NCBI GenBank assembly: GCA_002502625.1
Contig: DAPV01000035.1
Coordinates: 6,279 to 70,278 of the forward strand
Length of the DNA: 64,000 nt
DNA from: Euryarchaeota archaeon UBA125
GTDB lineage: Archaea; Thermoplasmatota; Poseidoniia; Poseidoniales; Thalassarchaeaceae
Reading direction: 5' to 3'
Shown here piece by piece: positions 24,576 through 55,813 of this stretch; the stretch's first letter is position 1; every line of letters starts with the position of its first letter. A program made the position numbers and the translations under genes. Below the pieces are notes generated by a model. It was given only the letters and a program-made list of their open reading frames with translations. It was not told the origin of the DNA and did no database searches.

Positions 24576-25007
24576 TCATTCTTCCTCATCCGATAGTCCA
24601 CTAACAAAAACTAGTCTAGCATATATCGCCATCAACATCATCAACATTCCAGATACAGTCAATATCAAGGATGTTGGCTCTGCAAATAATGATTGAAGCA
24701 TTGAGTTCCCAATTAACCAAGATAACATTAATGTCGCAATACTAGCAAGTAATATTCTAGAGATTGATCGGTGCGGTTTGGACCAGAGATGAAGAGCGGG
24801 AATTAATCCGTGGAAGCCGAAAGTTCTAGCATACCATGCTCGATAAAGTAGTGTAAGGCCAATTAGCCCTAAAACACCCCTAGTGAAATCTACATCACCC
24901 CATGGGCCTGCGAATCCAACACCAAAAGAAAGTGTATTTAGAACCAAAATCAAGCCAATTAGAACTTCAAAACGGATATCAATCGGTTCAAATGGATGTT
25001 GGCCCAT
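24576..25007 (-). CDS. Hypothetical 4-TM membrane protein
   Basis: Hydrophobic helices throughout. Abuts the rnhA stop. Confidence 0.4.
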   Translation of the reverse strand: MGQHPFEPIDIRFEVLIGLILVLNTLSFGVGFAGPWGDVDFTRGVLGLIGLTLLYRAWYARTFGFHGLIPALHLWSKPHRSISRILLASIATLMLSWLIGNSMLQSLFAEPTSLILTVSGMLMMLMAIYARLVFVSGLSDEEE

Positions 25008-25088
25008 ATATGCTGGATACCAACTAGATTCATGATTTCATCGATTGATTTTGTCGGATTTATATCCCCTGCGTATATTCTAGTAGTT

Positions 25089-25958
25089 ATGGACGAAGGT
25101 GGTTTGCAAATACATATTGTTGGAGCGGGTGGAATCGGATCAAATTTAATTGCATTATTACTGCCCTCATTAAGAAACGGAATTATTGCTAATCAATTGG
25201 GTGGAATCTCTTTCCATCTACATGATGCAGATATGGTAGAAGAAAAAAATTTGGTGCACCAACGTTTTACAGAGTCGCATATTAACATGCCTAAAGTCGA
25301 TGCTTTGGCTATGGAATTTAATTTAATTCATCCAAATGTACGTGTTATAGGACATTCAACCAATCTTAGATCTTCTGAGCCTCTTAGAAATGCAAATATC
25401 ATAATAGTAGCTGTGGATAGACCCGAGCCACGCAGAATTGTACATTCTCTAAGAAATGTAGAATGGTATGATTTGAGATGTGGACTTGATTCATGTCTCG
25501 TACTCACTCATGAAACTCATCTTGATGATATAGAAAGATTGACTCCTGAACACAAACCAGCTAGCTGTCAACCAGATGGTGCTATTGAAAGTGGTAATAT
25601 TCAATTTGGTTCTGCTTTAGCAGGAACATTTGGTGCCAATATCATTCTGAGGTCACTCATGAATAGAATAGGTAACAAAACGAATATCCCTGGTCCCGTT
25701 TGTTTTTCGATGGACATGGGAATGATACCTGTTTTCATACAAACAAAAAATACAGTTCCATTTAGTCAACAGCCACCAAAACGTCCTACTCATCTATGGT
25801 CAGAAAAAGAAGATGTGCAATTGCTTGAACAAGCAAAAAGGGGGTTAACTCTGGAAAGAGTTGCGAGTCATCATCAAAGATCTCCTGGGGCAATTTGGCA
25901 TAGACTTCTAAAAATTACAGGAATAAGAAAAGCATTAGATTCTGAGGCAGGTGAGTAA
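25089..25958 (+). CDS. Minimal E1-like (ThiF/MoeB-fold) adenylyltransferase with C-terminal Myb/SANT-like motif
   Basis: IHIVGAGGIGSN (nucleotide loop), ..LHDADMVEEKNLVHQRF.. (E1 Asp/Arg motif). No CxxC zinc pairs. C-terminal WSEKEDVQLLEQAKRGLTLERVASHHQRSPGAIWHRL. Confidence 0.65.
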   Translation: MDEGGLQIHIVGAGGIGSNLIALLLPSLRNGIIANQLGGISFHLHDADMVEEKNLVHQRFTESHINMPKVDALAMEFNLIHPNVRVIGHSTNLRSSEPLRNANIIIVAVDRPEPRRIVHSLRNVEWYDLRCGLDSCLVLTHETHLDDIERLTPEHKPASCQPDGAIESGNIQFGSALAGTFGANIILRSLMNRIGNKTNIPGPVCFSMDMGMIPVFIQTKNTVPFSQQPPKRPTHLWSEKEDVQLLEQAKRGLTLERVASHHQRSPGAIWHRLLKITGIRKALDSEAGE

Positions 25959-26435
25959 ATGGAACTTTCTTCAAATTCAGTACTAAAAATGTGTGAGAAA
26001 ATTCAAAGTGGGAAAGCTAAGGATGTCGAAATAAAGCAAATTCTAGTTGAACTTGGAAATCAAAAAAGATGGGCAGAAATGTGGGGTATTAGTCATGCCC
26101 TTAGAGTAGAAATAAGTTGGATTAAAGATGCTAAAAATGATGTTTGGGTAGATATTGGAACTGCTGGTGAGGTCACGTTAAATCCGCCAATCGGTGCTCA
26201 ACTACCGTTTCAATTATGGATTCATACTCATCCATGGAATGCATATTGGAGTATTACCGACCTTCGAACATTAGCAAAGTTTTGTGGTCTGATTCAAGAA
26301 GCATTGGTTTTAGGGCATGATCATAGTAAGCATACAGTATGTAAGTTACCATTTGGTCATTCATTAGAAGAGGGTGTAGAACCCCTATCAACTTGGACCG
26401 ACGAACCATGTATTCCCTATGAGGTATCAAAATGA
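25959..26435 (+). CDS. JAB/JAMM-family metalloprotease (deubiquitinase-like)
   Basis: JAMM motif WIHTHPWNAYWSITD (H-x-H-x7-S-x2-D) with upstream Glu. ATG immediately follows the E1 stop. Confidence 0.7.
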   Translation: MELSSNSVLKMCEKIQSGKAKDVEIKQILVELGNQKRWAEMWGISHALRVEISWIKDAKNDVWVDIGTAGEVTLNPPIGAQLPFQLWIHTHPWNAYWSITDLRTLAKFCGLIQEALVLGHDHSKHTVCKLPFGHSLEEGVEPLSTWTDEPCIPYEVSK

Positions 26436-26671
26436 AAATTCGAATTCCTGATGATGATGAAGGTAAAGACATTCGTAACATAATTGTGGGAAACGATATT
26501 GGAATTGGTTTGAAGAAGTGGCTAAAAATGCAGATGGATATTGAAGCGGATGATGCATTAATAGATGCATTGATCATGTATTTCGAAGCATGTAAACTAG
26601 CTGGACTAGAATTTGTAGATATTGAAGAGGCCATCATATCACATAATAAATGGCAAAATGATTCTATGTAG
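26432..26671 (+). CDS. Small acidic hypothetical protein translationally coupled to the JAB gene
   Basis: ATGA overlap with the JAB stop. 79 aa, no GG terminus. Confidence 0.35.
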   Translation: MKIRIPDDDEGKDIRNIIVGNDIGIGLKKWLKMQMDIEADDALIDALIMYFEACKLAGLEFVDIEEAIISHNKWQNDSM

Positions 26672-26736: not shown

Positions 26737-27345
26737 GTGTCAAACAAGTATCCAGTTGAAATCGAACGGAAATTTTTGGTTCATTGTATTCCAATAAACC
26801 TTCAAAATAGTACTCATCTGAGACAATGGTACATTCCTTCATCGTTGATTGAATATAAAAATAAAATTACCCTAAATGAATTAGAATTAGTTTCAGAAGT
26901 AAAAAATGAATGGCAAAGTAAGGTTCGTGAATTAATCAACCTTGAAAATACTACAATTCGGATACGAATAGATAACAAGTCTGCAATTCTATGTATCAAA
27001 GGAAAAACAAAAGGAATTTCTAGAATGGAATTTGAATGGGAATTGCAAAATTATTCAGTTATAGAAGAATTACTTGTAGAATCAAATTGGCCCATGGTGG
27101 AAAAACAGCGATGGGAGATAATAGCAGAAGATGGGCATTTGTGGGAATTAGATCAGTTTCTAGGATTGAATGAGGGGTTATGGCTCACTGAAATTGAGCT
27201 TGCTAATGAAAATGATGATTTCGTATGTCCTAATTGGGTTGGTTCAGATGTTTCTCAAGATCGAAGGTTTTCATCAAAACAGTTGGCTAAAAATCCGTAT
27301 GTTGAATTCAAAGAAGATCAATTAAGACCACTGAGAAAATGTTAA
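26737..27345 (+). CDS. CYTH-domain triphosphate-tunnel metalloenzyme (CyaB/ThTPase-like)
   Basis: N-terminal VEIERKFLV (ExExK motif) and size about 200 aa with alternating charged beta-strands. Confidence 0.55.
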   Translation: MSNKYPVEIERKFLVHCIPINLQNSTHLRQWYIPSSLIEYKNKITLNELELVSEVKNEWQSKVRELINLENTTIRIRIDNKSAILCIKGKTKGISRMEFEWELQNYSVIEELLVESNWPMVEKQRWEIIAEDGHLWELDQFLGLNEGLWLTEIELANENDDFVCPNWVGSDVSQDRRFSSKQLAKNPYVEFKEDQLRPLRKC

Positions 27346-27512: not shown

Positions 27513-28646
27513 ATGGAGATAAAAGAGAATTGTATAGAATGTGGTAGCGATAAATTTGAACATGATGATGTAAGAGCTGAATATCATTGCACTATTTGTG
27601 GATGTATTGTTGAAGACCAATTAGATGATAATGTGACCCAATTCATGAATAGTGAAGGTCAGATAGAGAGAGAGATGAATTCTAACAGACTCGGAGGTGA
27701 TGAAACTAAAACATGGGCTTCCACAAGAGATGCTGCGGGCAGACCTGTTGTATACAATAGACAAAAGAGGTTGAGAAATAGTAGATTTGACAGAAATTCG
27801 AGGGCTGAAAGAACTTGGTTGAAAACTGATGTTGAGCGTTTTATCGATTCACCTAATATGCCAGGCTCTAGAACAATGAAGACTCTTGCAAAGAAGATTC
27901 TTGCCCAAACCCACTCTGTAGAGGAACACGAGAAAAGAAGAGGTAATTCTGTGATGTGGGAGGCAATGAAAAATGTGAATAATGGAGAAGATGTTCCTCT
28001 ACCACTCAATCAAACAAGACATGCTCAGAAAACTGGGAACGACGATACTAGAAATGGGAATTATTCAACAAGAATGGTAGCAATAGCTGTCATGAATATA
28101 GCCGCTAGAATTATGGGAATTGCTCTACCAACAAAGCAATTGTCGACTGCATTCGATGTTCGTCATGATCATTTGACTAGAGAGTCAATGAATATCACGA
28201 AATATCTTACAATTATTTGGAAAGCCGACAATTTGATTGTTGAACAAGGAAACCAGAGTCAGTCTCTACCTAGAATAGGAATTTCACCAGGAATGCTTAG
28301 CGAAGGAAGAACGTGGAGTGAAGAAGACATTCGTGCTGCTATTGATGAATTAAGACCTTCATTGGAAGAAAGATTTGGAACAATGACTGCCAGATTAATG
28401 ATTACAGAGATTTGGGCAATGCTAGAAGAAGCGAAAAGTCATGCTTATCTCTCAGGACAGAATATCAGATTAGTTACTGCAGGCCTAACTGTGCGTTCAA
28501 CAAAAGCAAGAGGACAATCAAGACTTAAGCAAAGAATTGCGGAATTGTTAGGAATTACCACAAATAGACTGAAAAGACTTGAGAAAGATTACAGTTTAGT
28601 CATTGATGGAATTTTCAATAATCATCATGTACCAACTGATGCATAA
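27513..28646 (+). CDS. Divergent TFIIB/TFB-family paralogue
   Basis: N-terminal TFIIB-type Zn ribbon NCIECGSDKFEHDDVRAEYHCTICGCIVEDQ (cf. canonical [12 protein letters not shown]...[10 protein letters not shown] at 54749-55675). C-terminal HTH ..QRIAELLGITTNRLKRLEK. The middle part is highly diverged. Confidence 0.55.
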   Translation: MEIKENCIECGSDKFEHDDVRAEYHCTICGCIVEDQLDDNVTQFMNSEGQIEREMNSNRLGGDETKTWASTRDAAGRPVVYNRQKRLRNSRFDRNSRAERTWLKTDVERFIDSPNMPGSRTMKTLAKKILAQTHSVEEHEKRRGNSVMWEAMKNVNNGEDVPLPLNQTRHAQKTGNDDTRNGNYSTRMVAIAVMNIAARIMGIALPTKQLSTAFDVRHDHLTRESMNITKYLTIIWKADNLIVEQGNQSQSLPRIGISPGMLSEGRTWSEEDIRAAIDELRPSLEERFGTMTARLMITEIWAMLEEAKSHAYLSGQNIRLVTAGLTVRSTKARGQSRLKQRIAELLGITTNRLKRLEKDYSLVIDGIFNNHHVPTDA

Positions 28647-28735: not shown

Positions 28736-28954
28736 ATGAGTAATATTACATTGCGCATCGTTAACGAATCTGGTGATACAATAATGAATTCTCTAAGTGA
28801 AGCCCAGCTTCGCCAAGAGATTTCTACACTCGACAATGAAAAGTGGATTTTTGTGGATGGTCGCATGGTCAACCGCAGTGAATTGGCTAATGTCGAGGTA
28901 GCAGACAATGCTACAGTAATCGTAACGCCAAAGATTGTTGCCGGGCGCGTCTGA
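28736..28954 (+). CDS. ThiS/MoaD-like beta-grasp (ubiquitin-like) protein with non-GG C-terminus
   Basis: MSNITLRIVNESGDTI...WIFVDGRMVNRSELANVEVADNATVIVTPKIVAGRV aligns in my reading to ThiS (..VQDGDQILLFQVIAGG). AGGAGG 8 nt upstream of the ATG. Confidence 0.45.
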   Translation: MSNITLRIVNESGDTIMNSLSEAQLRQEISTLDNEKWIFVDGRMVNRSELANVEVADNATVIVTPKIVAGRV

Positions 28955-32918: not shown

Positions 32919-35297
32919 GTGACTGACTGGGCGGGATATCTACAACACTTCACAGAAGAAGGGTTTAGTGAAGAGGGAATTAGAATCTTGTTGGGAGAAA
33001 ATCCAGATAGTGATTCAGTATTATTCGTTCAAGAAACGCTAGAAGATGCAAAAAAATTGATCATGATGTTAGATAGCGTTCCTAAATCACTAACCGAATC
33101 AGCAAATGGTATGAAAAGACGATTATTACAACATCCTTCTGAATTAGAAGATATTCGAGCTAGATACAATGTAATGGTTGTAGCAACAACCCCTTGGGTT
33201 GCATCGGCTGAAAAAATGAGAGAGCAGTGGTCAATGGAAGGTAGGTCAATTGAATTAGCTGCATGGCTTAGACGATTGGGGTCTATTGATCATAATCCTC
33301 CTAAAGAAACAAGAGAAGTGATCCAAGTAATCGAAAATATTGCACCTAGAGATGAAGTAAGAAGAGCAATTGAAAATTTAGAAGGTAAACAGAGAGAAAG
33401 ACGTGTAATCCTTCAAGACATGATGAATATTCTAGAACGAAAGGGGTGGAACTTAGAATTCTCTGAACATGCAAATCTTTCACAAAAGTTTGAAGAAGTT
33501 TCTGAATGGTTAGAATTGGAAGATCGAATTGAAGCATTAGAAAGAAAGATTTTCCAATTTGAGGAAAGAAGGCCAAATGAAGCTAACATGGGTTTGAAAA
33601 TTATTGAAAAAGCAAGACTCAATGGCGATAGAAATGCAATAAAACAATTAGAATTAGATGTTAATGATGAGATTCAAGATATTCTAGAAAGTGATGAAGA
33701 AATCAAAACTCGATTGAATTATTGGTCTCAAAATGGACTGATTATTACTGATTCGGAAATTCTAACAAACAATCAATTATGGAAATTCGAAGAAAACTTA
33801 GATGAATTAGAAAAACATTGGAATTTAGTTTATGAAAAATGTATTATTTTACGTAATCTTCTTGATAAATCAGGACAGAAATATCCAGATTGGATTGGAC
33901 ATGTTGATTCATATGAAAAAATTCTAACTACAATTGATGAATTAACAGATCAACAAAAACAACTGAATGATAATTTACAACTAGAAATTGAAACATGGAG
34001 AAATTACGGACTAAATTTAGAATTAATTGGTAAAATATTTGAAGGAAATAATGTATGGGAATTAGATGAACAGATTAACGGGTTACGATCATTGGCTGAA
34101 ATAGCAATTTCGATTCTCAATTCTATTGATTATTTAGATCAATCAATAGACAGCGAAAGAATCGGTGAAATTCGCGAAAGTGTAATTCGAGACTGGAATC
34201 TACATAGTACACTTCAATTTGAAATGGAAGAAATTGACAAGATTTCGCGAAGACAAGAACATCATTTAGTAATGCTATACGAACGTGCAGAAGAACTTTC
34301 TATGGACGTCACAGAATCGAATGATTGGACAATTGAAGAATTTGAAAATAGAATATTTGATGCTGAATTAATAAGAAATCGTGATGTAGAAAAAAGGGCT
34401 AAGAAGAATGAGGAATTGAATAAAAATATAGTAGAGTTGTCAAAAATTCCTACCCCTAAAGAAAAAATTGAAAATTCGTCTGACAATAAGAAAAATGATC
34501 TAAATAATTGGATCGAGAAGAAAGCGGCTGATGGGAAATTATTCTACTATAATCAAGAAACTAAACAGTCAACTTGGTCAAAACCTGATGGAATAATTCT
34601 ATCAACAAACGAACCAGTAAAAACTCCCATCAAAGAAGAGATTGAGTTAATCATTTCAGATATCAAAAATATTAGTGAAGAAAATGATGGAGAAATTATT
34701 GAAGGTGGGATTCCCAAAATTCCGGAGATAGAAACTGTTGTTCAGGAAAAAGAACCTATTCGGTTCAGACGATTGGGTGTAAATGGAATCAAGATGCCGG
34801 TTCTAGTTGAAGATGAAACCAAGATGAAAAACGATACAGAATCAGTCTCAGAGACTAATCAAAAAAAGAATCTTAATCATATTCTAAGAGAAAAATTGGG
34901 AATTAATAATGAGAATCCATTGATTGTAGAATCTTCACGAAACAGGGATCTAAGAATTCAACGTATTCTAAGACTAATTCCATTAATTGAATCAAAGTTC
35001 GATTCAGGTGATCAGCAAAAAATAGTTGATGACTTACTGCCCGTCCTTGAGAATATTGAACAATGGATTCGTGTAAGAAGTGAGCATCGACGATGTTGGA
35101 ATGACAATGGAGGAATTGTCCAAAAAATCGATCGCTTACAAGATGTGTTAGATGAAGTCCCTGGACCAGGAATTCAATTGCCAATTGGGTTCGATAAGAT
35201 ACCTTTGCCATCTAAAACAGAAGATCTGATTGAAGAAATTAAGGATTTTTCGATTAATGCTCTAGTCTCCACTTCTGGTGGAATTATCGCATTATAA
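32919..35297 (+). CDS. Large acidic coiled-coil protein containing a canonical WW domain
   Basis: ..LNNWIEKKAADGKLFYYNQETKQSTWSKPDG.. has the two Trp 22 residues apart, the central GK-FYYN-T and a trailing KP. The rest is E/K-rich coiled coil. GTG start with AGGTGGA upstream. Confidence 0.6.
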   Translation: MTDWAGYLQHFTEEGFSEEGIRILLGENPDSDSVLFVQETLEDAKKLIMMLDSVPKSLTESANGMKRRLLQHPSELEDIRARYNVMVVATTPWVASAEKMREQWSMEGRSIELAAWLRRLGSIDHNPPKETREVIQVIENIAPRDEVRRAIENLEGKQRERRVILQDMMNILERKGWNLEFSEHANLSQKFEEVSEWLELEDRIEALERKIFQFEERRPNEANMGLKIIEKARLNGDRNAIKQLELDVNDEIQDILESDEEIKTRLNYWSQNGLIITDSEILTNNQLWKFEENLDELEKHWNLVYEKCIILRNLLDKSGQKYPDWIGHVDSYEKILTTIDELTDQQKQLNDNLQLEIETWRNYGLNLELIGKIFEGNNVWELDEQINGLRSLAEIAISILNSIDYLDQSIDSERIGEIRESVIRDWNLHSTLQFEMEEIDKISRRQEHHLVMLYERAEELSMDVTESNDWTIEEFENRIFDAELIRNRDVEKRAKKNEELNKNIVELSKIPTPKEKIENSSDNKKNDLNNWIEKKAADGKLFYYNQETKQSTWSKPDGIILSTNEPVKTPIKEEIELIISDIKNISEENDGEIIEGGIPKIPEIETVVQEKEPIRFRRLGVNGIKMPVLVEDETKMKNDTESVSETNQKKNLNHILREKLGINNENPLIVESSRNRDLRIQRILRLIPLIESKFDSGDQQKIVDDLLPVLENIEQWIRVRSEHRRCWNDNGGIVQKIDRLQDVLDEVPGPGIQLPIGFDKIPLPSKTEDLIEEIKDFSINALVSTSGGIIAL

Positions 35298-54748: not shown

Positions 54749-55675
54749 TCAAATTTCAAGTTCGATATTTAGATTCTGAATTAATTCCTTGTATCTATTT
54801 CGAATTGTGACTTCAGTAACTCCTGCAACCTCTGCAACCTCACGTTGCGTACGTCGTTTACCACACAGGACTGAAGCAATATAGATAATCGATGCTGCAA
54901 TACCAGTTGGACCTCTTCCTGATGTCAATTCTTTCTCTTGTGCTCTTTGAATCAACTCATATGCCTTTGATTGGACTTCTGCATCTAGATCTAAACCACT
55001 ACAGAAACGAGGGATGTACATCTCTGGTGTAGTTGGTGGTATTTTCATCTTCAATTCTCGGACCATGAATCGATATGTGCGTCCGATTTCTTTTCTACCA
55101 GTTCTACTAGCTGTACTAATTTCATCTAATGTTCTAGGATTTCCACACTGCCTACAAGCAGCATACAAACTGGCTGCTGCTACACCTTCAATGGATCTGC
55201 CACGAATTAATCGGGCCTCTACTGCACGTTTGTAATTAACAGCAGCAGCTTCGCGAATTGACTTTGGAAGATTCAATCGGCTAGCCATTCTATCTAATTC
55301 AGCTAACGCCATAGCTAGGTTTCGCTCAGTTGCATTACTAACTCTACTTCTCTTTTGCCACTTTCTCATTCTGTAAAATTGGCTACGATAACGACTGCTG
55401 ATTGTTTTTCCAGAATAATCTTTGTTTTGCCAATCAATATCGGTGGAAAGTCCCTTATCGTGAAGCATAACTGTCATTGGTGCACCGGTTCTAGCCCTTT
55501 GATCTCCTTGTTCTGGACTAAAAACACGCCATTCTGCACCTTGATCGATTACGTTATCTTCCACAACTAGACCACAAACAGCACAGACAATTTCACCCCT
55601 TGTCTCGTCACGATCTAGGTCGCGGCTTCCACATTCTGGGCATTTTACGATGTCTTCTACTTGAGGGTCTGACAT
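54749..55675 (-). CDS. tfb: Transcription initiation factor TFB
   Basis: Zn ribbon [10 protein letters not shown]...[10 protein letters not shown], two cyclin repeats, C-terminal HTH ..[19 protein letters not shown]... Start set at MSDPQV (the ORF track extends to 55735). Confidence 0.9.
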
Positions 55676-55689
55676 ATTGATTATCTCCA

Positions 55690-55730
55690 AAGATATTATA
55701 CACTCGAATAATTCTCTCTTATAAATCTTT
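55690..55730 (-). promoter_or_regulatory. Putative TATA/BRE region for tfb
   Basis: Minus strand ..AAAGATTTATAAGAGAGAATTATTCGAGTGTATAATATCTTTGGAGATAATCAATATG. Two TATA-like elements 20-45 nt upstream of the ATG. Confidence 0.3.
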
Positions 55731-55813
55731 TTCAAAATAATGACCGATTTTTAAGCAACAGATTATTCATTTCTTTGAATTGAATCACGGCCAAGGTCAA
55801 ATAGAGTCAGTCC

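Follow-up and report, generated by a model that had tools for sequence, protein, structure and literature searches.

Whether an enzyme that activates ubiquitin-like (Ubl) proteins can carry, as a settled part of its architecture, a domain of the kind found in DNA-binding regulators is the question raised by a gene in a 64,000-nucleotide stretch of the genome of Euryarchaeota archaeon UBA125 (Marine Group II, Poseidoniales, Thalassarchaeaceae; contig DAPV01000035.1, positions 6,279 to 70,278), referred to here as the window. The product of this gene, termed E1-Myb below, had been read in a first-pass annotation as an E1-like enzyme which lacks zinc-binding CxxC pairs and a rhodanese domain and whose C-terminal residues resemble a Myb/SANT domain, a combination held to be undescribed. 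As judged from family-wide sequence profiles and a structural model, this tail is a genuine single-copy Myb/SANT-class helix-turn-helix (HTH) domain of the prokaryotic type, and the gene lies in a conserved cluster which also encodes a JAMM-like metalloprotease, a Ubl precursor, and a divergent paralogue of the transcription factor TFB. It is proposed, at roughly even confidence, that E1-Myb is the activating enzyme of a Poseidoniales-specific Ubl system that operates without an E2 enzyme, and that it acts as a dimer tethered through its HTH domains to DNA or to a DNA-bound partner.

The Myb/SANT-type tail

The tail domain comprises residues 236 to 278 of E1-Myb (LWSEKEDVQLLEQAKRGLTLERVASHHQRSPGAIWHRLLKITG), and the segment in which the Myb likeness was first perceived, WSEKEDVQLLEQAKRG...SPGAIWHRL, corresponds to residues 237 to 273. 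A search for relatives returned 86 proteins, the first 25 of which proved 43-99% identical to the query; setting aside one fragment, these proteins are 285 to 308 amino acids (aa) in length and all possess the tail. The same fusion, which the first-pass annotation had suggested should be sought in orthologues, is indeed retained in 24/24 full-length orthologues, proteins of 41-99% identity, none of which lacks the tail as the first-pass annotation would have required for refutation. Alignment of these sequences revealed that W13, L21, L22, R40, S41, A44, and R48 of the tail are invariant and that G28, H47, and L49 are nearly so, with H47 (conserved in at least 90%) and the invariant R48 both located in the third helix. 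In the structural model, each of the three tail helices has a predicted local distance difference test (pLDDT) value above 90, while the core of a model of the tail alone reaches 91 to 95, and the tail is consequently not predicted to be disordered; disorder was an outcome which the first-pass annotation had envisaged as fatal to its claim. Because the tail is kept in all 24 orthologues down to 41% identity and is confidently predicted to form three helices, it does not represent a chance motif. The notion that the tail has degenerated, is neutral and without function, or stems from an annotation artefact, and that its likeness to Myb is fortuitous, draws on the behaviour of the window copy, which by itself produces no significant Pfam or PDB fold match; the presence of the tail in frame in every orthologue, its seven invariant positions, its confidently folded model, and the significant profile matches to Myb repeats described below render this notion highly improbable.

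When individual tails were scanned against Pfam, Myb_DNA-binding (PF00249) was matched by 12 of 21 (best E value, 8.1e-9), Myb_DNA-bind_6 (PF13921) by 11 of 21, and Myb_DNA-binding_7 by 9 of 21, the weaker matches of orthologue tails going to other HTH families; precomputed PF00249/PF13921 matches are, moreover, available for six E1 orthologues. Compared with the PDB, a profile of the tail family matched repeat 3 (R3) of c-Myb and B-Myb at E values of 2e-4 to 6e-4 (2e-4 to 1e-3 when the Myb repeats of CEF1 are included), with WsdEEDrqLL...GRSpgAi of the tail aligned onto WTEEEDRIIY...GRTDNAI of repeat 3. The Myb/SANT assignment is thus backed by profile search for 12 of 21 orthologous tails and for the family profile, but not for the window copy taken alone, which would not pass the first refuting condition of the first-pass annotation, the lack of a significant HTH/Myb-like match.

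An exhaustive search of 1.84 billion protein representatives with the tail profile identified 6372 proteins at an E value of 1e-3 or lower and 509 at 1e-10 or lower, and most of the best 150 matches carry between 2 and 15 matched stretches. Ten top matches were scanned against Pfam, two of which were E1-Myb proteins or fragments thereof. Myb_DNA-binding was found in seven of the eight non-E1 proteins, several of which also matched GcrA, sigma-70 region 4, or HTH_23, while the eighth (P0103) matched HTH_40 and HTH_23 only; the repeats of these top matches conform to W[ST]xEE[DE]xxLL...G....[ED]IAxxLGR[ST]xxA. The tail shares with c-Myb R3, SANT domains, and prokaryotic Myb-like repeats the signature W-[ST]-x-[ED]-[ED]-D-x-x-LL ... 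G-R-[ST]-x-x-A-[IV] and a three-helix bundle, whereas it departs from these in being present as a single copy, in being less basic, and in being fused to an enzyme rather than forming part of a transcription factor. It furthermore retains only the first of the three canonical Myb Trp residues, which is invariant, the second being Leu or Phe and the third Leu; SANT and Myb-like domains are known to tolerate replacements of this kind.

From the fold family to which the tail belongs, we infer a function as a DNA- or chromatin-type module. Binding to DNA is its most plausible activity, because all orthologues have a basic helix 3 (charge of +2 to +5) next to an acidic E1 core (isoelectric point of 4.7 to 6.8), because H47 and R48 are conserved, and because the proteins closest to the tail in sequence are members of DNA-binding HTH families.

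Several observations nevertheless speak against this reading of the tail. The window tail alone, submitted as stretches of 66 and 156 aa, found no Pfam match even at an E value of 10 or lower. Foldseek comparison of the tail returned no significant neighbour from the PDB (best E value, 0.28) or from BFVD, in which the closest entries were phage HTH proteins (best E value, 0.011); in favour of DNA binding, on the other hand, the top PDB neighbours were all tri-helical HTH domains of DNA-binding kinds, headed by the SANT/Myb-like domain of CASP8AP2 and including the Myb-like domain of DMP1, LuxR/FixJ, sigma region 4, and Tc3/IstA. Helices 1 and 2 are acidic (-1 to -7), and the domain as a whole is near neutral (-3 to +3), as opposed to approximately +6 for c-Myb repeats. 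In addition, an aromatic residue (W, F, or Y) occupies what we take to be the position of a DNA-contacting Lys of c-Myb R3, a SANT-like trait, this placement being a contiguous extension of the tail/c-Myb profile alignment to the c-Myb-DNA complex. A single Myb repeat is usually a weak DNA binder, and a search for a conserved operator or shared repeat 5' of the E1, TFB-like, and Ubl genes recovered only TATA-like elements, the upstream regions of orthologous loci being short and too diverged to align.

The near-neutral charge, the aromatic residue at the presumed contact site, the single repeat, and the outcome of the operator search make SANT-like docking a serious rival to DNA binding. Under this alternative, the tail would serve as a protein-docking module for the TFB paralogue, the JAMM-like protease, its 79-aa partner protein (p79), the Ubl, or a substrate, in a role similar to that of the ubiquitin-fold domain of canonical E1 enzymes in partner recruitment. 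It gains further credit from the identity of the top structural neighbour, CASP8AP2 (not significant), and from relatives which fuse JAMM at the same C-terminal position, marking the C-terminus as a place of partner attachment. On the other hand, a Ubl-Ubl-E1 form that lacks the tail is paired with a separate JAMM gene, indicating that JAMM docking does not require the tail; the closest relatives in sequence are repeat proteins which also match classical DNA-binding HTH models; and the basic character of helix 3 extends to all orthologues. Docking is accordingly regarded as a somewhat unlikely explanation, and DNA binding is retained as the preferred one.

The adenylation core and its gene

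Direct translation shows the gene to be unbroken in frame +1 for 289 codons plus a stop codon. A longer open reading frame beginning at an upstream ATG (24996) is also open; the start was placed at 25089 because orthologues begin at the homologous Met and because the TATA-like sequence TTTATAT lies 24 to 30 nucleotides (nt) upstream of this ATG. The position of this putative promoter suggests that the E1 transcript is leaderless or possesses a short leader.

The E1-like motifs reported in the first-pass annotation are present where it had placed them, with GAGGIGS at residues 12 to 18 (nt 25122-25142) and DADMVEEKNLVHQRF at residues 46 to 60 (nt 25224-25268). Pfam ThiF (PF00899) matches residues 7 to 119 with an E value of 3.8e-12 and a score of 46.3 bits (cut-off, 28.1), and an AlphaFold2 model, for which 43 relatives were used, averages a pLDDT of 87. 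The best PDB neighbours of this model in Foldseek are all E1-like, namely UBA5, Cap2 of the cyclic oligonucleotide-based antiphage signalling system (CBASS), ThiF, MccB, and UBA3, with E values of 7e-11 to 1e-9 at 15-18% identity over 214 to 247 columns; the Cap2 structures 7tqd and 7tsx are among the top matches.

Across 43 aligned members representing every architecture of the family, G12/G14/G15, D46, D48, N54, H57, Q58, K69, and D110 are invariant, as are R115, H119, D128, R130, S159-C160-Q161, and F173-G174. Alignment by HMMER to the active adenylation site of UBA6 equates its DpDliE with D46/D48, its NLNRQ with N54...H57-Q58, its Lys with K69, and its ALDN..aRR with D110...R115/R116, D110 being the putative Mg-site Asp. 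E1-Myb resembles ThiF, MoeB, and UbaA in its Rossmann-type fold, in the GxGGxG motif, the ribose Asp, the Asn and Gln of NxxRQ, the Lys, and the Mg Asp, and in being a small enzyme of one domain whose core sheet is followed by a conserved Cys. It differs from these enzymes in possessing the HTH and a His in place of Arg and in lacking the CxxC...CxxC zinc site, the rhodanese domain, and the N-terminal helix. The first two of these absences had been noted previously and were substantiated here: the protein has four cysteines (131, 136, 160, and 205), none of them in a CxxC pair, and a Pfam scan of the 289-aa product detected neither rhodanese nor any domain besides ThiF.

The best NCBIfam matches of the enzyme are ThiF models (PRK08644, 1.5e-14). 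Its scores against the equivalog models are 54 versus a cut-off of 159 for ThiF (PRK08644), 22 versus 449 for MoeB, and 20.9 versus 450 for the SAMP-activating E1/UbaA, that is, 21-54 bits where 150-450 are called for. Because all three scores fall far under their cut-offs, E1-Myb is assigned by sequence to a distinct E1-like clade and is not an orthologue of ThiF, MoeB, or UbaA.

Cys160 is the candidate catalytic cysteine of this clade, through either a thioester or an acyl-disulfide, and is presumed equivalent to the Cys of the E1 crossover loop. It is situated between helices 145-151 and 165-168, where the 10-residue blocks of positions 151 to 170 average a pLDDT of 76 to 83. Beyond the core, residues 220 to 227 of the linker fall below a pLDDT of 50 in the AlphaFold2 model. 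The protein terminates in E[AV]GE in 19/24 orthologues; this x-[AV]-G-x end loosely resembles that of the Ubl precursor itself. Public annotation of the family is limited to "ThiF family adenylyltransferase" or "hypothetical protein," and the 90% cluster of the window E1 includes GenBank MFL2976308.1, named [quoted passage not shown]

The gene cluster and its variants

The positions of the E1-Myb gene, its parts, and its neighbours are compiled in Table 1. The cluster follows the order 143-aa hydrophobic protein (minus strand), E1-Myb, JAMM, p79, CYTH-like protein, divergent TFB paralogue, and Ubl, and this order is shared by the window and seven other species-representative genomes (L001/L017, L010, L013, L014, L015, L018, and L019), the remaining related loci ending at contig ends. 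In total, 26 related loci were recovered from the species-representative collection, all in Poseidoniales metagenome-assembled genomes bar one 2.3-kb contig binned as Salinimicrobium, and the E1-Myb form is present in 11 species representatives. L003/L020, which represent the deepest E1-Myb lineage, have no CYTH gene in the cluster, and their TFB-paralogue and Ubl genes, still adjacent to one another, are inverted and located approximately 7 kb away. As the cluster is flanked by genes for enolase, GcvH, and RNase H, together with an aminotransferase gene, it is considered part of the chromosomal core rather than an island.

Table 1. Coordinates in the window of the E1-Myb gene, its domains and sites, and neighbouring genes
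Feature	Position	Strand	Description
143-aa hydrophobic protein	24576..25007	-	divergent from E1; no family match
TATA-box-like TTTATAT	25059..25065	+	24-30 nt 5' of E1 ATG; read from sequence
E1-Myb gene	25089..25958	+	289-aa E1-like adenylyltransferase with C-terminal Myb-type HTH; stop codon TAA at 25956-25958
E1/ThiF-like adenylation core	25089..25733	+	residues 1-215; GAGGIGS, D46/D48, N54, H57-Q58, K69, D110 (25416-25418), R115
Cys160 codon, S-C-Q motif	25566..25568	+	invariant in 43/43 family members, all architectures
Flexible Pro/Gln/Lys-rich linker	25734..25793	+	residues 216-235; poorly conserved
Myb/SANT-type three-helix HTH	25794..25922	+	residues 236-278; predicted helices 239-250, 255-261, 266-277
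C-terminal extension	25923..25955	+	ends E-A-G-E (...S-E-A-G-E at 25941-25955)
JAMM/MPN+-like metalloprotease	25959..26435	+	158 aa; ATG directly after E1 stop
p79, 79-aa protein	26432..26671	+	start overlaps JAMM stop (ATGA)
CYTH-like (triphosphate tunnel) protein	26737..27345	+	Pfam CYTH 1.1e-4, just under threshold; EIERK motif
Divergent TFB/TFIIB paralogue	27513..28646	+	Zn ribbon and weak cyclin-like match; always adjoins Ubl gene
72-aa ubiquitin-like precursor	28736..28954	+	MSNITL...KIVAG-RV; two residues past Ala-Gly
Canonical TFB	54749-55735	-	Pfam TFIIB 2e-48; elsewhere in window

The JAMM-like protein harbors an invariant E ... HxH ... S-x-x-D motif (E51, H89, H91, S98, and D101), in which the spacing from HxH to Ser is one residue shorter than in AMSH-LP. 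Compared with the PDB, its profile matched JAMM proteases only (AMSH-LP, Sst2, and STAMBP), at a marginal E value of 0.009 and over the WIHTHP...S..D motif. The family comprises at least 514 sequence clusters; Pfam gave no match for any member scanned, and among the 120 clusters listed there was neither a JAB/MPN match nor a source name beyond "hypothetical protein." The p79 gene lies 3' of JAMM in every E1-Myb, Ubl-Ubl-E1, or E1-JAMM-fusion locus which retains enough downstream sequence, and its product, in which only G24 and W74 are invariant and no Cys is conserved, matched no family or structure in Pfam and PDB profile searches. A strand/helix/Gly/helix pattern had pointed to p79 as a ribbon-helix-helix regulator, a candidate that was dropped since neither Pfam nor PDB profiles lent it support.

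The Ubl gene is preceded by GGAGG 8 nt upstream of its start. All nine aligned relatives of its product possess [GA]G near the C-terminus, followed in each case by further residues (VAG-LV, VGG-LG, VGG-FC, VGG-ITEL..., for example), and these proteins are accordingly interpreted as precursors that require C-terminal trimming. In the two larger E1-Myb subclades, Ala-Gly replaces the customary Gly-Gly.

In profile comparison, the TFB paralogue matches the Zn ribbon of Pyrococcus furiosus TFB (1pft, 2.7e-8) and, weakly, the TFIIB cyclin region (0.026), and Pfam Zn_Ribbon_TF is found in 8/9 of its orthologues. Its gene is located at most 8 kb from E1-Myb in every locus with sufficient flanking sequence. 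A helix of the paralogue containing RTWSEEDI was considered as a relative of the Myb tail and set aside as superficially similar, the tail profile having no match there or elsewhere in the window or the related loci. In most, though not all, genomes the CYTH gene separates the TFB-paralogue/Ubl pair from the E1-JAMM-p79 operon; as it is gone from the cluster in L003/L020, it is probably no core component and was rejected as such. The hydrophobic protein gene, by comparison, is near or next to the cluster in every E1-Myb locus, either upstream and divergent or, in L003, downstream, and may belong to the system. Outside the cluster, the window also encodes a 792-aa protein (32919-35297, plus strand) that matches the WW domain (PF00397) at 3.9e-8, as does the product of the syntenic gene in L001/L002; WW domains are typical of eukaryotes.

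The E1 core occurs in four forms: alone (approximately 215 aa), as Ubl-Ubl-E1, as an E1-JAMM fusion (395 to 420 aa), and as E1-Myb. In P0030, two tandem Ubl units, each ending in LVGG, occupy the N-terminus of the E1, and in L005 (7001-8116), a chromosomal-looking 87-kb Poseidoniaceae contig, the gene for a 371-aa Ubl-Ubl-E1 precedes those for JAMM and the 79-aa protein. The existence of Ubl-Ubl-E1 and E1-JAMM fusions in relatives argues that E1, JAMM, and Ubl are functionally linked. The prokaryotic E1/JAB/Ubl operon survey of Iyer et al. (2006) describes ThiF proteins that begin with a Ub-like domain, as well as E1 proteins to whose N-terminus a JAB domain is joined (PMC1779556).

Sequence comparison identifies the Myb domain as a lineage-specific C-terminal addition at the site where other lineages fuse JAMM. 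When E1 cores were compared by neighbour joining (no bootstrap), most tail-bearing sequences grouped together, albeit not as a clean single clade: P0024/P0025 branch apart, and the tail-less P0029/P0033 lie beside the main clade, such that the tree does not distinguish one gain followed by loss from two gains.

Two of the tail-less loci are L007 (6702-9603), which encodes a Ubl, an E1-JAMM fusion, the 79-aa protein, and a weakly TFB-like protein in this order, and L009 (6530-7952), with a Ubl, a short E1, and a split JAMM. Both contigs carry a single-subunit RNA polymerase (PF00940), L007 additionally carries an HNH nuclease, and they may represent a Marine Group II virus or mobile element. 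One paper notes ThiF/MoeB genes as common in archaeal viruses (PMC8276007). When IMG/VR was scanned for viral relatives, nothing beyond generic ThiF proteins of 23-31% identity was obtained, and PHROGs matched, among the L007 neighbours, only the HNH nuclease and a single function-unknown family which corresponds to the E1-JAMM protein itself; neither resource confirmed the E1-JAMM contigs as viral.

The composition of the cluster bears upon a further alternative, namely that it specifies a sulfur-carrier pathway without tagging, in which JAMM would trim the carrier, the E1 would adenylate it for thiocarboxylate formation, and the HTH would serve in self-regulation. In the QbsC-QbsD-QbsE and CysO-Mec+ systems, a carrier with residues past its di-Gly is trimmed by a JAMM protease (QbsD or Mec+) and served by an E1-like activator, with no E2 involved. 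The present cluster resembles these systems in its extended carrier (one relative of which ends in GG-FC), its JAMM peptidase, its E1-like activator, and the lack of an E2; ThiF models are, moreover, the best NCBIfam matches of the enzyme, and the conserved Cys is compatible with ThiF-type acyl-disulfide chemistry. It is unlike them in containing a TFB paralogue as conserved partner, the CYTH gene, and the 79-aa protein and in having no rhodanese domain, cysteine desulfurase, or gene for sulfur metabolism or for cofactor or amino-acid biosynthesis. Together with the subthreshold ThiF and MoeB equivalog scores, and with the tandem Ubl-Ubl-E1 fusions and the copies on RNA polymerase/HNH contigs, which fit poorly with cofactor synthesis, these differences make a sulfur-carrier function unlikely, and tagging by the Ubl is preferred.

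CBASS Cap2/Cap3 and the ubiquitination-like Bil/Bub operons of bacteria provide a further comparison, with a similar E1 fold, a JAMM peptidase partner, and a substrate with a C-terminal Gly. The "E1-E2" models of Cap2 in PADLOC match only the E1 part of E1-Myb (3e-8), and four neighbouring proteins scanned had no PADLOC match. Unlike CBASS and Bil/Bub, the E1-Myb cluster is a core locus rather than a defence island; it offers a dedicated 72-aa Ubl precursor as substrate, bears an HTH on the E1, and contains no E2 domain or gene, CD-NTase, or effector. In particular, Pfam searches of the cluster proteins revealed no E2-like protein.

A proposed E2-less modification system

The proposed mechanism builds upon what is established above, namely how the domains are arranged and conserved, which genes form the cluster, and which folds were assigned. 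The JAMM-like protease would first cleave the two residues following [GA]G of the 72-aa Ubl precursor, whereupon the E1 core, with ATP and Mg, would adenylate the newly exposed C-terminal Gly, a step to which the conservation of GxGGxG, D46, N54, Q58, K69, and D110 points. Cys160 would then receive the Ubl as a thioester. Transfer without an E2 is proposed because no E2-like gene is present; the Ubl may be passed to target lysines directly or with the help of the co-translated 79-aa protein, and JAMM may reverse the modification. With the HTH placed on a disordered tether of approximately 20 residues, the presumed E1 homodimer would display two HTHs, since E1-like enzymes of this type are homodimers, and these would hold the enzyme on DNA or on a partner bound there, for instance the TFB paralogue encoded beside the Ubl.

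Two outcomes may be envisaged. In the first, tagging would be aimed at DNA-bound or transcription proteins, for which the adjacent TFB paralogue is the obvious candidate. In the second, E1-Myb would repress its own operon in the manner of BirA, an adenylate-forming, protein-modifying ligase with a DNA-binding HTH and proven operator binding. The parallel with BirA, the union of an adenylate-forming ligase with an HTH, is a functional analogy only, as its catalytic fold is unrelated and its winged HTH is located at the N-terminus. The specific version of the first outcome, a DNA-tethered E2-less system operating at promoters or chromatin and tagging the divergent TFB paralogue or other DNA-bound proteins, is considered unlikely as it stands, while the broader proposal of an HTH-tethered E2-less activating enzyme keeps the even standing given at the outset.

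Certain properties of the enzyme and its partners temper this proposal. Throughout the family, His57 takes the place of the Arg of NLxRQ (giving NLxHQ), and the chemistry of the E1 may for this reason differ from the usual one. The Pfam ThiF match begins at model position 22, the N-terminal helix, which bears the Arg finger in ThiF and MoeB, being missing from E1-Myb. The Ubl profile matched ubiquitin weakly (E values of 1.3 to 1.6), and its comparison by hhalign with ThiS, MoaD, and ubiquitin gave probabilities of 2-22%, which leaves the beta-grasp fold of the Ubl putative. A weakly TFB-like gene (E value of 0.003) also stands beside the tail-less E1-JAMM fusion of L007, which renders the TFB link independent of the tail. 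Finally, the host archaea are uncultured.

The small archaeal modifier proteins (SAMPs) offer a comparison within the archaea; they are made with a free GG end, unlike the Ubl described here, which is made with two residues past Ala-Gly. Sampylation in Haloferax is alike in being archaeal and in combining E2-less Ubl conjugation logic, as suggested for the present system, with a JAMM isopeptidase, whereas Haloferax UbaA is of the MoeB type, with zinc sites and no HTH. In one report, the SAMP-UbaA-HvJAMM1 pathway of Haloferax is linked to turnover of the basal transcription factor TBP2 (PMC4895103).

No published description of an E1-Myb/HTH fusion or of a Poseidoniales Ubl system was found in the literature searched, and a term search of the Iyer et al. 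(2006) survey (PMC1779556) gave no mention of HTH. With public names for the family equally generic, the earlier statement that this architecture is undescribed holds. Precomputed Pfam tables show PF00249 and PF00899 together on some orthologues, and the raw signal is therefore public, though uninterpreted. Both the E1 plus Myb architecture and the gene cluster are new, while the type of system to which they belong is already known.

Prokaryotic E1/JAMM/Ubl cassettes are investigated both for their place at the root of ubiquitin signalling and for their antiviral action, and in no description found does the activating enzyme itself bear a domain of a nucleic-acid-binding type. The present analysis also brings to light families without Pfam coverage that have yet to be characterized, namely the JAMM-like protease, its 79-aa partner, and the Ubl. 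In abundant uncultured marine archaea, an E1-HTH fusion is conserved in company with a Ubl precursor and a private TFB paralogue, which hints at a connection of protein tagging with DNA or transcription in the Thalassarchaeaceae. If the HTH binds DNA, the system would provide a simple, reconstitutable case of spatially targeted Ubl conjugation or of a self-regulating E1; and were tagging to be sited at promoters or chromatin, it would be the prokaryotic equivalent of transcription-coupled ubiquitylation, in an archaeal group that ranks among the most abundant of the surface ocean.

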